DNA from: a virus | Taxonomy: Duplodnaviria > Caudoviricetes | Virus record (IMG/VR): IMGVR_UViG_3300044981_000214 | Strand: one strand, 5' to 3' | Length of the DNA: 64,000 nucleotides | Shown here: one piece after another, positions 361 through 49,207 of the stretch | How the letters are laid out: each line of letters starts with the position of its first letter | How positions within the stretch are numbered: position 1 is the first letter of the stretch | The notes under the pieces: model-generated | The model's database searches: none | What the model saw: only the letters and a program-made list of their open reading frames with translations | What the model was told of the DNA's origin: nothing | Program-made: the position numbers and the translations under genes

Positions 361-597
361 TCAGCAGAATGCCACTGACGCTGCCGCGACTACTATCAGT
401 GTCGCTAATACAATTACGTCCATCATCATATCGAATCGCGTACGCTTGTAGACTTGTACACGACCGGGCCGTTTTACCGTCAATCCTTGACGCGCTTCAT
501 CAGTCAACGTATATTCAATAATCGTGGAGCCGTTCGGCGTCTCTTTAATCACACGCTTACTGACAATAGTTGATTTCATGCCTAGTTTGTACGCCAA
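361..597 (-). CDS. small protein with C-terminal transmembrane segment
   Basis: 78 aa ending in a hydrophobic stretch (VIVLATLIVVAAASVAFC); same strand as neighbours. Confidence 0.5.
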   Translation of the reverse strand: MAYKLGMKSTIVSKRVIKETPNGSTIIEYTLTDEARQGLTVKRPGRVQVYKRTRFDMMMDVIVLATLIVVAAASVAFC

Positions 598-1376
598 TAG
601 ACATAGTGATGTCTAGGTGTTTCGTGGGAGTCCCCGTCGTAGCTATTGGTAAAATGTGCCCACCCATCGCTTGAAATAGCTTCGTTTACGGCCTGTTCGA
701 TATCAATCCCAGCAATTTCAATAGCCTTCTCCGTTGGATTTTCATAGCCCAAATCGTTCAACCACTGCATTGGGTCTTGCGAACGTTCTTCAGCTGTCTT
801 TTCTTTAATTTCTTCAATATACTTGTCGGCGACCGCCGACGGCATGGCCCCAGTTTCTTCGTCGGGTTCAGGGATGTCTATATCCCATCGCTTGGCGTCT
901 TCCCAAAAACGTTCCGGATCATCCTTAGCAATTTCGTTCCAATATTCATCTTCCATCTCAGCGTCTTTGACCCACTCCCGTAATTTAGCTATGTTGATAT
1001 GTCGCGCAATGAAGTCTTGATTGAAAATCTCAGGCTCATTGTTCAAGGTTTCTCGAACTTGATCACGCGCCATTTCTTCAGCGGTCTCTTTTTTTTCGAA
1101 CGCACGATATTCTTTGCGTCCTAGCTTTATTTCATAGCCGTCGTCGGAGTCTGATTCTTCGATATCCAAGTCTGTCGGATCAACGTCCAATGCTCTAGCC
1201 ATATCAAACAAAATCAGGTACTGAATCAGGTGCTGTTCTTCAGCAAGATCCTCGGCGGTCGACAATGCTTGAGCCGCTTCAGAATCATCAGGATCATATT
1301 GACTCAGCAAATCCTCGATATGTTCCTCAGCTTTAGCCTTGGACATAGCAGCGCCTAAAGACTTGCGTCGCATCAT
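582..1376 (-). CDS. acidic hypothetical phage protein with N-terminal RRKSLG tag
   Basis: 264 aa, D/E-rich; basic N-terminus MMRRKSLG-AA; C-terminal DGWAHFTNSYDG motif. Confidence 0.6.
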   Translation of the reverse strand: MMRRKSLGAAMSKAKAEEHIEDLLSQYDPDDSEAAQALSTAEDLAEEQHLIQYLILFDMARALDVDPTDLDIEESDSDDGYEIKLGRKEYRAFEKKETAEEMARDQVRETLNNEPEIFNQDFIARHINIAKLREWVKDAEMEDEYWNEIAKDDPERFWEDAKRWDIDIPEPDEETGAMPSAVADKYIEEIKEKTAEERSQDPMQWLNDLGYENPTEKAIEIAGIDIEQAVNEAISSDGWAHFTNSYDGDSHETPRHHYVYWRTN

Positions 1377-1382
1377 GACGTT

Positions 1383-1901
1383 CTATCGCCAATAAGCTAA
1401 TACTCGACCGAACGAACCATCACCAGACGAGTCACCTGACGAGTCACCTGACGAGTCACCTGATCCATCGTCATAGTTATCATCTGGTGCAATTGGCGTA
1501 GTCACAACAGCTACCGGAGCGGCTGCCGTGTTATATGCAGTAGCTGCACTACCTGGCGTGGTTACAACCGTCATACCTGGCGCTGCAGCCTGTACAGCTA
1601 TACCGTCGGCCTGCCCATAGTTGTTAGCACAGTGAGCAAGCTTAACAAGCCCTGCGAGCGCCGTAATACCGCCTAGAAACAGTGCAGGCGTCCATGCACG
1701 TTCGGTCTTGGCTAGCTTGAATGCGACCCCAAATGTCAGCGTTGTAAGCGCACCGCCGATAATTGCAGCAGGTACACCGACAGCAGCTAATCTATGGCCC
1801 CAATGGCCACGACGGTGGCTATATCCGTTAGAAGATGGCCAATTTTCGGAATCGTAATTACCATCGGATCCATCTCCAAGAATACGTGCTGCTGCCAACA
1901 T
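1383..1901 (-). CDS. putative virion membrane protein (2 TM, SSGD repeats)
   Basis: two hydrophobic helices, Ala/Thr-rich region, ILG at N-terminus and GSFG-R at C-terminus. Confidence 0.6.
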   Translation of the reverse strand: MLAAARILGDGSDGNYDSENWPSSNGYSHRRGHWGHRLAAVGVPAAIIGGALTTLTFGVAFKLAKTERAWTPALFLGGITALAGLVKLAHCANNYGQADGIAVQAAAPGMTVVTTPGSAATAYNTAAAPVAVVTTPIAPDDNYDDGSGDSSGDSSGDSSGDGSFGRVLAYWR

Positions 1902-2227
1902 TATCGAACTCCTTTGCCGATTGACCTGAGCGCTATAGGACTATCAGGTTGCGTTGCGTCGCTTCGAGAAGTTTTCCCGTGAACGCCGTTTTTGACACCG
2001 TTCTTAGCTAACCCATTTGACGTGTTCACTAGTGTCTGTATGACATCAGACGGTTGACCATAACGGCGTTGATGGTGTGCTTGAATAGCCAGCGCTTGTT
2101 CAGTGAGCATGTGATCAAACTCGGCAGTTTGATGATGGTTCTTGCGCCACCACCAACGTTGCCAAATCGAGGCAACGACGATGATCATACAGAACAACCC
2201 CATCGAGATTATGAATGATGTATGCAT
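1901..2227 (-). CDS. hypothetical protein with N-terminal TM helix
   Basis: likely ATG at 2227 abutting the upstream stop; TM followed by WQRWWWRK. Confidence 0.5.
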   Translation of the reverse strand: MHTSFIISMGLFCMIIVVASIWQRWWWRKNHHQTAEFDHMLTEQALAIQAHHQRRYGQPSDVIQTLVNTSNGLAKNGVKNGVHGKTSRSDATQPDSPIALRSIGKGVR

Positions 2228-2228
2228 C

Positions 2229-2435
2229 TTATGCATCTTCCTTGTTGGAAGTTTTGTCAGGAAGAGCCGATTCAGGCGCTTCAAGAATACGCAAGATCAC
2301 GGCATTAAACGTAACGAGTTTATGCATCATCTTGCGCATCTCCATCAATTCCCTTGAGAACATCCACATCAGCCATACACCAAATCCCGTCGGGAACCCC
2401 CACCGCTCGATTAAATTTTGAATAATTTCCCACAC
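2229..2435 (-). CDS. YvrJ-like small membrane protein (holin-like candidate)
   Basis: IQNLIERWGFPTGFGVWLMW followed by a helical or coiled segment, resembling the YvrJ pattern (GFP-x-VxxYLL). Confidence 0.45.
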   Translation of the reverse strand: MWEIIQNLIERWGFPTGFGVWLMWMFSRELMEMRKMMHKLVTFNAVILRILEAPESALPDKTSNKEDA

Positions 2436-2471
2436 TTAACCGACCTTAGGTTGAGGGTTTAACCGAATTAT

Positions 2472-2618
2472 CTACTTGCGAAGCTGTTTGCGCATGCAGG
2501 TAATATATTTGCCGCTTCTTCGGTGCTTGCAAATTTTAGCTGCAGCCTTGAACCGTGCCCTAGCACGTTTCTGAGCTGGACTTGCAGCACGACGGGACTT
2601 ACGACGACGTTTGGCCAT
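2472..2618 (-). CDS. small basic protamine-like protein
   Basis: ATG at 2618 with AGGAG RBS; MAKRRRKSRRAASPAQKRARARFKAAAKICKHRRSGKYITCMRKQLRK. Confidence 0.7.
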   Translation of the reverse strand: MAKRRRKSRRAASPAQKRARARFKAAAKICKHRRSGKYITCMRKQLRK

Positions 2619-2653
2619 TTTGGCTTTGCTCCTGATTTTGAAGGTTGAGAAAA

Positions 2654-47863: not shown

Positions 47864-47864
47864 T

Positions 47865-48293
47865 ATGCTAGGCATTACAGTAAACGAAGCACAACGGAGT
47901 CTCAACGGCGCGGACTATGAACATGAAATAGTCCCGTACGGTATGTACATGCCGTATCCAAGAAATACCCTTCCTGCTGTTCCACCAATCAAACCTCAGA
48001 TCTTGGGCGGTTGTTTTGGAGATGTGCCAAACGATTTTGAGGCAAGCGTAGATTTACAATATACACCAGTGCGTGAAGGTTGGTACTACGGCAGCCAATT
48101 AGGTTGTAGTGGAGGATGTGGCGGAGGCGGGGGCTATAGCAGGCACGATCGATCAAGCACTGAAGAGCTGCATCGATTAAATAAAATCGAGCGTACCCAA
48201 ACATTTCTCCAGACAATCTCAGCGGCTTCAATTGCGATTGTAGCGACGTTGACAGTCATTAAGTACCTTACTGGCCGTGACTCTTTCAAGTAA
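47865..48293 (+). CDS. putative virion membrane protein
   Basis: LGGCFG-D and QLG-CSGGC; C-terminal TM. Confidence 0.6.
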   Translation: MLGITVNEAQRSLNGADYEHEIVPYGMYMPYPRNTLPAVPPIKPQILGGCFGDVPNDFEASVDLQYTPVREGWYYGSQLGCSGGCGGGGGYSRHDRSSTEELHRLNKIERTQTFLQTISAASIAIVATLTVIKYLTGRDSFK

Positions 48294-48299
48294 TCTTCA

Positions 48300-48563
48300 A
48301 TGAAGCGTGCTGCAGGTCCCAGATTCATATGCTGGCGAGTAGACCTCGGTAGCCATCGTCCGGCATATGTTACGAGTGTAGCAGAAACCAAAGGACGGGC
48401 AGGGTGGCGCTACACAGCAAATAAGTCAGGGGCTCGTACGCTGTCACCTGAAATGGTCAAGGATTTCGAAGCAACGGTCAGTCGTGAACGTGGCATATCC
48501 TTTTGTCGCTCTGTTGATTCCGGGTTAGGGCATAAACGAACTAGATCGCGTACACGAAAGTGA
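48300..48563 (+). CDS. small basic protein with GLG-Arg tail
   Basis: ends DSGLGHKRTRSRTRK. Confidence 0.6.
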   Translation: MKRAAGPRFICWRVDLGSHRPAYVTSVAETKGRAGWRYTANKSGARTLSPEMVKDFEATVSRERGISFCRSVDSGLGHKRTRSRTRK

Positions 48564-48568
48564 CTAGT

Positions 48569-48584
48569 GATCGCCCTAGCGATC
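48569..48584. promoter_or_regulatory. palindromic motif copy 7
   Basis: GATCGCCCTAGCGATC, 3 nt before TGaTATGCT. Confidence 0.7.
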
Positions 48585-48603
48585 CTATGATATGCTAATA
48601 ACC

Positions 48604-48915
48604 ATGCGTAGACGCAGTCGATTAGGTAGCCCCGAGTACATACATACACTGCGGGCCAAGACTGCACAGCGATCGATGAAAGAGGGCCTGAGTCTAGCTG
48701 AAAAGAGACTTGCGGCCCGGCAATGCACAAGTGCCTATATGAATTTAGTGCAGGCGTGGCAGGGGTACGGCCAGGTAATGGCTGAAAACAAGGGCGGTGG
48801 TAGCGAATGGATTCCGCATTCGGATTTTATGGACACTAGCGGCAAGTTTGTTGATATGTGCATCAGGGACCTCGAACACGGACTAGGTAGGCGCACTAGA
48901 CGCAGTCGTCGGTGA
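48604..48915 (+). CDS. small basic protein with LG-Arg tags at both ends
   Basis: MRRRSRLG-SP ... EHGLG-RRTRRSRR; leaderless ATG 48604. Confidence 0.65.
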   Translation: MRRRSRLGSPEYIHTLRAKTAQRSMKEGLSLAEKRLAARQCTSAYMNLVQAWQGYGQVMAENKGGGSEWIPHSDFMDTSGKFVDMCIRDLEHGLGRRTRRSRR

Positions 48916-48940
48916 TAATTGAAAAAGGATCAAAGAGATC

Positions 48941-49207
48941 ATGGCCCAAAACAAGTTATTCTGCGCCCGTAGTATTCCAGGCGCCCCATTCGTTCGCACC
49001 TCGATCAAGCATAAAAAGCTATCAGAGTTCGAGCAGACTAAGGTCGGTAAGGTTATCTTGCTGGTTCATCAAGGTTATCCTCACATGATCTTGACTGCGC
49101 CTAAGCGCAAGGGTGAATTTGAAGCAAAGTGTCCATTCGGGACCAAAAAAATACATATCGACTCACCACATGAGTTGAGCGGACTTCGTCGGCGACACAG
49201 GCGGTAA
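48941..49207 (+). CDS. small basic protein with LSG-Arg tail
   Basis: ends HELSGLRRRHRR. Confidence 0.6.
   Translation: MAQNKLFCARSIPGAPFVRTSIKHKKLSEFEQTKVGKVILLVHQGYPHMILTAPKRKGEFEAKCPFGTKKIHIDSPHELSGLRRRHRR

Follow-up and report, generated by a model that had tools for sequence, protein, structure and literature searches.

Unrelated late proteins of an uncultured bacterial virus lineage share end-tags joined by Leu/Phe-Gly, probably signals for cutting or docking

Maturation codes are known from tailed phages, where serine proteases read them, and from adenoviruses, poxviruses and African swine fever virus (ASFV), where the enzymes are Ulp1-like cysteine proteases. The adenovirus protease adenain follows the consensus (M/I/L)XGX-G or (M/I/L)XGG-X and belongs, with poxvirus I7 and ASFV pS273R, to the Ulp1-like clan, in which the catalytic residues stand in the order His, Asp/Glu, Cys. 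The internal proteins of phage T4 carry a capsid targeting sequence (Leu/Ile-x-Glu) that is removed by the prohead protease gp21, a serine protease. Adenain releases the basic C-terminal peptide pVIc (GVQSLKRRRCF) at IVGL/G (here and below a slash within a sequence marks the junction) and processes DNA-bound precursors (PMC4246237). In this study, a 64,000-nucleotide stretch of viral DNA (IMG/VR record IMGVR_UViG_3300044981_000214; the whole stretch is called the window below) was analyzed. Unrelated late proteins encoded in it share end-tags joined to the protein body by Leu/Phe-Gly ([L/F]G), probably as signals for cutting or docking, and the same motif is carried by an enzyme with a transglutaminase fold and a membrane anchor, a plausible cutter. 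A literature search gave no description of such a code for a transglutaminase-fold enzyme, nor of this virus lineage.

The window is a member of a lineage of large uncultured bacterial viruses with genomes of 81–232 kb, several of them with direct terminal repeats, and falls in the large-genome branch of that lineage. Membership was marked by a conserved 251-amino-acid (aa) protein predicted to be all-beta (alignment A3). The late module of the lineage contains many tail-anchored membrane proteins, small Arg-rich proteins and the membrane-anchored transglutaminase-fold enzyme. The relatives compared were L001 and L002 (IMG/VR), L003 (the closest relative, on a contig of 232 kb), L004 (an NCBI assembly contig of 150 kb) and L006 to L008; in the genomes with G numbers, genes were called crudely as the longest ATG open reading frames (ORFs).

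Three classes of tag were distinguished: i) class a, a leader that begins with Met-Leu (or Ile/Met/Phe), closes with [L/F]G and is found mostly on tail-anchored membrane proteins, ii) class b, an N-terminal leader made of an Arg/Lys run followed by [L/F]G, and iii) class c, [L/F]G followed by a poly-Arg tail at the C-terminus. By shuffling, the window would be expected to contain 2.2±1.4 ML-type leaders, 0.5±0.7 basic leaders and 0.04 Arg/Lys tails preceded by [LFM]G (Leu, Phe or Met followed by Gly), whereas 7, 4 and 4 were found, respectively. In the window and its relatives together (589 proteins), 43 ML-type leaders (12.0±3.4 expected) and 17 basic leaders (3.9±2.0 expected) were counted, and over all proteins [L/F]G is enriched about 1.8-fold at residues 6–25 (108 vs 61). 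Of the basic tails, 62 by a loose definition, 14 are joined through Gly, a residue with a share of 8.6% in the window set, and 6 through [LFM]G; the rate of [L/F]G per position is about 1.2%. Across the lineage, ML-type leaders and C-terminal anchors go together (odds ratio 6.1, p=1e-11). Statistically the grammar of these tags is well founded, and it extends over the lineage. Its carriers in the window are:

582-1376, minus strand: acidic protein with the leader MMRRKSLG/AA
1383-1901, minus strand: protein with two membrane helices and the leader MLAAARILG/D
2654-2797, minus strand: very basic 47-aa ORF with the C-terminus AALG/GRSRRRR
12611-13516, plus strand: protein with the layout of the enzyme, i.e. 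anchor, basic stretch and LG (…LLSRRRNYALG/DSS…)
28874-29116, minus strand: 80-aa protein with the C-terminus GGMG/SRGRSKRRRRR
38751-39701, minus strand: FG/LG-rich protein, 316 aa, with the N-terminus KKQATLG/D, adjoining the most conserved all-beta protein
41956-42288, minus strand: small Gly-rich protein with hydrophobic stretches and the basic leader MRYRRSLG/R (…RRRRSSLG/D in the L003 orthologue)
43980-47863, plus strand: five successive C-terminally anchored proteins (43980, 44654, 46053, 46446 and 47369), three of which begin with ML or MI
47865-48293, plus strand: tail-anchored membrane protein with the shortest leader, MLG/ITVNE
48300-48563, 48592-48915 and 48941-49207, plus strand: three small basic proteins with Gly and poly-Arg/Lys tails

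The products of six successive genes (43980-48293) thus have a C-terminal membrane anchor, and the last of them belongs to the family that is the clearest case. Its leaders, 3–10 residues long, each stand directly before the same conserved body: MSFG/ITVNE in L003, MLAMSQRGLG/IAVNE in L004, MTLG/VVLTPYG in L006, MARRRGLG/IILTPYG in L007, MMLG/IV in L008 and MSLG/IILSPYG in G008, a genome without the C39 peptidase discussed below. In L004 there is a run of class-a leaders (MLTMTRGGNGFG/D, MLAMTQYRRRGFG/D, MLAMTRGTMFG/D and MLALTLSGSGLG/D); in the window, the 43980 product reads …MLGSFG/D, and the 46446 product has the C-terminus AAFG/RRRSY. The leader of the 1383-1901 product closely resembles MLAAAHLG/D, that of the C39 peptidase of G002. 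Class b is exemplified by the 48592 product, which has the basic leader RRRSRLG/SPE in addition to its tail, and by MRKRSARFG/SPE in L003, MAKKRKQLG/STS in L004 and MARKRKRKALG/STD in G002. About 8 small window ORFs terminate in Arg-rich tails, and the class-c tails of the 48300, 48592 and 48941 products, for which no Pfam or PHROG family was found, are retained in the L003 orthologues of this trio (PLLG/RKRIK, HGLG/RRNRRR and EGFG/RRRSRRR). The site in the 12611-13516 product is weaker, since its LG is not kept at the aligned position in the G002 orthologue. In a further small protein (32955-33185, plus strand), which may bind metal, the ML-type leader MLAITMLSGSFG/H leads into a tract rich in Gly and His, HGGGHGGGGHHGGGGHGHG.

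An earlier note on this DNA had read a broader motif, [FLM]G near protein ends or domain boundaries, as a candidate code for proteolytic maturation. All the motif strings it quoted were found at or near their coordinates (its examples at 2797 and 48604 are the 47-aa minus-strand ORF 2654-2797 and ORF 48592-48915, respectively), but the generic motif is not enriched. In comparison with per-protein shuffles of the 96 window ORFs, [FLM]G lies within 15 residues of the N-terminus in 21 ORFs (17.8±3.8 expected, p=0.23) and within 15 residues of the C-terminus in 15 (12.3±3.2 expected, p=0.24); beside a basic cluster it is modestly enriched (18 vs 10.2 expected, p=0.017). FG occurs in the window at 1.58 times the expected frequency, LG at 0.94 times and MG at 0.66 times, the excess of FG probably being owed largely to SFGMS/TFGMS units repeated in fibre-like proteins. 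Since the generic motif is not enriched and the FG excess probably comes largely from fibre repeats, several of the internal sites listed in that note are probably background. The negative generic test and the FG repeats would also fit a motif that is entirely a chance by-product of Gly-rich low-complexity composition. This is highly improbable, as the refined classes stand 5–9 standard deviations above the shuffles (pooled) and are conserved at aligned positions of orthologues; chance is largely refuted for these classes and stands for many of the internal sites. The earlier observation was therefore borne out in part, the generic motif being background and the narrower tag grammar being real and under selection.

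The [L/F]G always lies between a variable tag and a conserved body and is flush with the body, in N- and C-terminal tags alike. Leaders are 3–17 residues long, and among orthologues the junction is unchanged while the length and content of the tag vary (e.g. in the 47865, 48592 and C39 families). A fixed junction at a conserved body, preceded by a variable leader, is the layout of removable leaders or processing sites. In T4, too, short N-terminal leaders on unrelated proteins end at a fixed junction; however, the motif there is Leu/Ile-x-Glu and the enzyme a serine protease, whereas the tags here carry [L/F]G and differ in motif from T4-type targeting sequences. Nearly as likely as cutting by the transglutaminase-fold enzyme, the reading preferred below, is that the tags are left uncut. 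In that case [L/F]-Gly would be a short hinge, or a docking motif by which proteins are brought to the particle under assembly (e.g. to the capsid lattice, a scaffold or the membrane), the Arg-rich parts would bind DNA or acidic lipids, and the enzyme would have another virion role, such as cleaving cell-wall peptides during entry or cross-linking proteins. Leaders such as MLG, MSLG and MTLG keep [L/F]G under selection although their removal would achieve little, and the ML start is conserved, which a cleavage site alone would not need. On the other hand, the motif is flush with conserved bodies, unlike that of the uncut cargo peptides known to us, which lies inside a tag with a free linker; it also occurs in the disordered linkers between anchor and domain of two peptidase-fold enzymes, and no docking partner has been identified.

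The first of these two enzymes is encoded beside the run of tail-anchored proteins, with the following features:

43071-43886, minus strand: membrane-anchored transglutaminase-fold Cys-His-Asp enzyme, 271 aa
43722-43790, minus strand: N-terminal Gly/Ala-rich transmembrane helix, residues ~33–55, a hydrophobic stretch aligned in 25 of 25 homologues
43692-43703, minus strand: linker motif GFGR, residues 62–65, which joins the catalytic domain to the anchor and its basic stretch
43296-43298, minus strand: codon of catalytic Cys197
43197-43199, minus strand: codon of catalytic His230
43140-43142, minus strand: codon of catalytic Asp249

The earlier note had described this protein as transglutaminase-like, with a Cys-His-Asp triad, a place in the membrane-protein cluster and NGFG/R between its anchor and catalytic domain, and all of these features held. 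It scores 30.1 bits with Pfam PF01841 (Transglut_core; cut-off 23, E=6e-7), it adjoins the run of tail-anchored membrane proteins, and Cys197, His230 and Asp249, in that order, are invariant in 25 homologues with at least 43% identity. In the same homologues Gly64 is invariant and residue 63 is Leu/Phe in at least 90%, while the rest of the linker is variable, showing the motif to be real and family-wide. An AlphaFold2 (AF2) model of the enzyme had a predicted local distance difference test score (pLDDT) of 86, with a helix at residues 28–61 and a folded domain from residue 73. Residues 62–65 are the sole internal segment with pLDDT below 50; the conserved motif is therefore placed in a flexible linker. 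More than 200 homologues of the enzyme were found, and at E<=1e-3 the representatives number 2926; a protein identical to the enzyme occurs on a contig of up to 228,894 bp. In a set of 150 diverse representatives, an N-terminal anchor could be detected in 41, of which 31 have [LFM]G within 30 residues past it, the usual layout being anchor, Arg run, x, LG.

All structural matches of the enzyme are transglutaminase-core proteins, the top one being 3KD4 (putative protease; VIA Z 13.5, rmsd (root-mean-square deviation) 2.8, 140 aligned), followed by 3ISR (putative protease, Z 11.5), factor XIII and TG3 (Z ~10), PeiP (9.7), LapG and PNGase (9.4 each) and CPR-C4 (9.0); the enzyme-family profile had no match to any solved chain among the PDB sequences. 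Profile, triad and fold place the enzyme in the transglutaminase-like superfamily of the papain-like clan. It stands outside the group of adenain, I7 and pS273R, because its catalytic order (Cys-His-Asp) and its fold differ from theirs, and the adenovirus, poxvirus and ASFV proteases are functional analogies only. Since Z is similar across them, the fold leaves protease, transglutaminase and cell-wall isopeptidase unseparated: LapG and CPR-C4 match no better than true transglutaminases or PeiP, and PeiP and PeiW (phage-derived cell-wall isopeptidases; Z 9.0–9.7) would suit an enzyme that acts on the cell wall while the tags stay uncut. The window, however, already encodes a GH25 lysin with a peptidoglycan-binding domain (56780-57658), and relatives encode M23 peptidases. 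Lysis enzymes of the signal-anchor-release (SAR) type have a weakly hydrophobic Gly/Ala-rich N-terminal helix and a cell-wall hydrolase domain; the anchor helix here is Gly/Ala-rich, and a place of the enzyme in that type would be conjectural. In view of the separate GH25 and peptidoglycan-binding protein, a role of the enzyme as the endolysin was considered less likely.

Two described proteins invite comparison with this enzyme. LapG, of the BTLCP family, has the same fold and a Cys-His-Asp triad, cuts at an Ala-Ala pair and frees a protein from its anchorage (PMC4694147). A transglutaminase fold is therefore able to serve as a site-specific endoprotease at small residues, but LapG is soluble, periplasmic and bacterial, reads another motif and has no detectable sequence similarity to the enzyme. 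The best viral fold match is entry I1ZBG7, which from its similar length is probably gp34 of SSIP-1 (Salisaeta icosahedral phage 1). This gp34, a distant homologue, likewise combines a transglutaminase fold with a membrane anchor, and its annotation is that of a structural protein in a phage that contains a membrane, but the identity is 30% over 122 residues only, the anchor is C-terminal and no [L/F]G linker was seen. The complex predicted for the catalytic domain (residues 66–271, with alignment) and the 48592 product scored 0.29 against a mark of 0.32, which speaks neither for nor against a contact. In the homologues P0051 and P0209 and other long ones, an insertion of ~150–350 residues stands exactly at the catalytic Cys (GD/C…SN/CDD), with a weak match to Pfam Intein_splicing below the cut-off (E ~2e-4); an active-site intein, if these insertions are such, would point to a strongly conserved, essential site.

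The second enzyme is a membrane-anchored C39 peptidase (Pfam PF03412), confirmed in G001, G002 and G015 and in the contigs of L003 (P0190) and L004 (P0179) and restricted to the large-genome branch. It was not found in the window; a look-alike stretch ~86 kb upstream in this genome, seen as a word match only, suggests that this genome probably encodes one there. Its leader, ML…[L/F]G/D, stands immediately before a conserved VEPYQQ start, and in 14 of 17 homologues an [L/F]G separates the catalytic domain from a C-terminal anchor. As in the double-glycine C39 systems of bacteriocin exporters, leaders end in Gly, and a C39 homologue, itself tagged, is encoded in the large-genome branch; however, the C39 peptidase here is without a transporter domain, is not among the genes of the window and is missing from part of the lineage. 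Nor are the tags double-glycine leaders, because position -2 is Leu/Phe in all classes, not Gly. The transglutaminase-fold enzyme is present in nine of nine lineage records from IMG/VR (G001, G002, G008, G009 and G013–G017), whereas the C39 peptidase is absent by Pfam profile from four of them, the absence being confirmed by tblastn for G008 and G009:

G008, 138 kb: terminal repeats, 100% complete
G009, 129 kb: terminal repeats, 100% complete
G014, 126.5 kb: 98% complete
G017, 81.5 kb: terminal repeats, 100% complete

These genomes bear on a reading in which the tags are cut by the C39 peptidase encoded ~86 kb upstream, the transglutaminase-fold enzyme being a substrate or unrelated to the tags. 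C39 peptidases are, to our knowledge, known only as leader peptidases that cut after Gly-Gly, Gly-Ala or Gly-Ser; the peptidase is present in five lineage genomes or contigs with a look-alike in this one, it is itself tagged and has [L/F]G before its anchor, and [L/F]G-poly-Arg tails concentrate in C39-bearing genomes (4 in the window, 4 in G002 and 3 in G015, but 0–1 elsewhere), on account of which it may serve that class. Nevertheless, leaders and the linker LG are kept without it: G008 has MSLG/IILSPYG, MTTMLLG/E and MMQTRLLGLG/A and the enzyme linker RKQLTGLG/RLG/R, G013 and G014 keep LLG/R in the linker, and G017 has 12 ML-type leaders (3.4±1.8 expected) and 4 basic leaders (1.1±1.0 expected). 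In addition, P2 (position -2) is occupied by Leu/Phe instead of Gly, and bacteriocin leaders are far longer than these. G003 and G004, unrelated phages that have C39 only, no transglutaminase-fold enzyme and almost no genes in common with the lineage, have no more than a slight surplus of basic-type leaders, and this in G003 alone (5 vs 1.8±1.4). The C39 peptidase was therefore down-weighted as the sole cutter on account of the C39-free complete genomes, and we consider that reading quite unlikely. The retention of leaders in these genomes favours the transglutaminase-fold enzyme over C39, in a comparison of presence and absence that is confounded with phylogeny.

Our tentative preference, which we put at less than an even chance, is that the [L/F]-Gly sites are cut, mainly by the transglutaminase-fold enzyme, which is ranked first because it is the sole candidate present throughout the lineage. 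On this proposal, [L/F]-Gly would mark processing sites at which a papain-like cysteine peptidase encoded by the virus cuts, behind the Gly, while particles assemble. Throughout the lineage this cutter would be the transglutaminase-fold enzyme, which would also detach itself from its membrane anchor at the conserved site in the linker, and the C39 peptidase would be an accessory enzyme of the large-genome branch. The same [L/F]G motif occurs in the anchor linkers of two enzymes with papain-like folds, and papain-like peptidases are suited to a large hydrophobic residue at P2 followed by Gly at P1. The arrangement would resemble that of adenovirus in having a hydrophobic-Gly motif on unrelated DNA-binding or core proteins, a basic C-terminal peptide beside Gly and a viral cysteine peptidase; it differs in the transglutaminase core with its Cys-His-Asp triad, the membrane-anchored enzyme and the bacterial host, and in that cleavage is inferred here. 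The enzyme fold, triad, anchor, linker motif and co-occurrence with tags partly support the interpretation given in the earlier note.

Several points weigh against this proposal, in which both the occurrence of any cut and the identity of the cutter are inferred. Transglutaminases, PNGase and pseudomurein isopeptidases match the fold about as well as proteases do. Leaders as short as MLG and MSLG give little reason for removal, and their [L/F]G could act within the mature protein. The tags share no extended consensus beyond [L/F]G and a small residue at P3, and P1' depends on the class. Whole-genome leader counts are not above expectation in the C39-free G008 and G009, in gene calls that are crude for these G+C-rich genomes, and the linker of the G009 enzyme reads LAG rather than [L/F]G; the concentration of poly-Arg tails in C39-bearing genomes also counts here. 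Finally, since many core genes share one distribution, co-occurrence with a universal gene is weak evidence. The cutter could also be a protease of the host, or an unrecognised viral one among the orphan genes, with both cysteine-peptidase-fold enzymes doing something else. Most lineage genes are without family assignment, and in staphylococcal phage 80alpha the host protease Prp reportedly trims phage leaders. However, the lineage genomes span 49–67% G+C, which suggests varied hosts, so that such an enzyme would need to be broadly conserved among them, and two viral peptidase-fold enzymes with the same motif are the simpler explanation; we regard cutting by a third enzyme as unlikely.

The FG/LG-rich 38751-39701 product, for which the earlier note had given more than 10 FG/LG sites, contains 14 [LFM]G sites by our count, of which 9 are present in all four orthologues compared, 4 in three and 1 in one only. 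It is a candidate scaffold or glue protein. Phage T4 degrades its scaffold gp22 at many sites, and the 38751 product, lying beside the capsid candidate described next, resembles such a scaffold; if the tags are uncut, its mostly conserved sites would instead resemble those of a multivalent binding protein. The candidate capsid protein is the lineage marker itself:

37888-38643, minus strand: most conserved lineage protein, 251 aa, predicted all-beta; candidate major capsid protein

Identity of this protein across six relatives is 53–86%; its fold is not established, since the AF2 model is poor (pLDDT 42, six sequences). A 178-aa companion protein matched only viral clusters without names in the ESM Atlas. 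The N-terminal segment VGVAP(S/G)TTT of the 37888-38643 product recurs near the N-terminus of the 47369-47863 product (plus strand), and also in the 47369 orthologues of L003, L004 and L006–L008; the tail-anchored 47369 product may thus mimic the N-terminal arm of the candidate capsid protein. That VGVAPGTTT is common to the two suggests that N-terminal peptides dock to the shell, as would be expected of uncut tags. A 789-aa protein (51721-54090, minus strand) with a Gln/Glu/Arg-rich coiled-coil centre and Pro/Gln-rich flanks has orthologues in L001, L003, L006, L007, G002 and G008. It could be a scaffold, a tape-measure-like protein or a transglutaminase substrate, and its Gln-rich composition and nearby location would suit a cross-linking enzyme.

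The window has ~49% G+C over 64 kb and no tRNA genes, and megablast of 24 kb of it against a phage collection gave no match. In Pfam and PHROG searches, most late genes of the window were without any family; the recognisable genes include homing endonucleases and the following:

5455-8394: pectate-lyase-type spike
26212-28560, minus strand: VWA-domain protein, 782 aa (phrog_2426, E=8e-172)
56780-57658: GH25 lysin with a peptidoglycan-binding domain

The VWA protein was also found in G008 and G009; its identity is 48–53% inside the lineage and ~34% in about 500 Ackermannviridae-type and other large phages (including an Ackermannviridae hypothetical protein). Pfam searches of the relatives tested found no Terminase_6N, FtsK-type ATPase, S78, S77 or ClpP, among them no S78 or ClpP prohead protease in G002, G008 and G009 and no S77 prohead protease in three relatives. 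The lack of an S78 or ClpP protease counts in favour of the proposed cysteine-peptidase cutter. These absences are weak, because the control of the S77 search was also silent. Together with the many membrane-anchored late proteins, the failure to find hallmark genes puts the virion type in question.

Some other genes of the window are worth noting. Adjoining ParB-like nuclease-domain and PAPS-reductase/DUF3440 proteins (34786-36601, minus strand) form an IbrB/IbrA-like pair flanked by HNH-type endonuclease genes. A small dual-specificity-phosphatase-like protein (49467-49892, plus strand; …CLAGCNRSG…) has conserved counterparts in L003, L004 and L008, with weak DSPc matches there in precomputed Pfam results. 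The fibre-like proteins (4021-5451, 8410-9561, 14145-18021 and 29834-30985) consist of repeated modules of ~35–40 residues (…AGTQTATSGTVVFSNSNG.. FGMS…). Proteins 8410, 24544, 29834 and 31703 have a common N-terminal adaptor domain (…LKN.L.F.G…LPHLLNV…) and differing C-terminal parts, which suggests several interchangeable receptor-binding proteins.

Taken as a whole, the scheme in which an undescribed, possibly membrane-containing lineage matures its particles by means of an [L/F]-Gly-reading transglutaminase-fold peptidase, with self-release of the enzyme, trimming of leaders, degradation of an FG scaffold and removal of Arg tags, is speculative and rather more doubtful than cutting as such. 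If true, it would be an independent counterpart, in a bacterial virus, of adenovirus-style maturation, carried out by an enzyme family not known for such a role. Should the cleavage be confirmed, a function could be assigned to the large family of viral transglutaminase-like proteins that lack annotation, represented by the 2926 sequences noted above. Whatever the mechanism, the tag grammar is a sequence handle with which the orphan proteins of one assembly pathway can be predicted.

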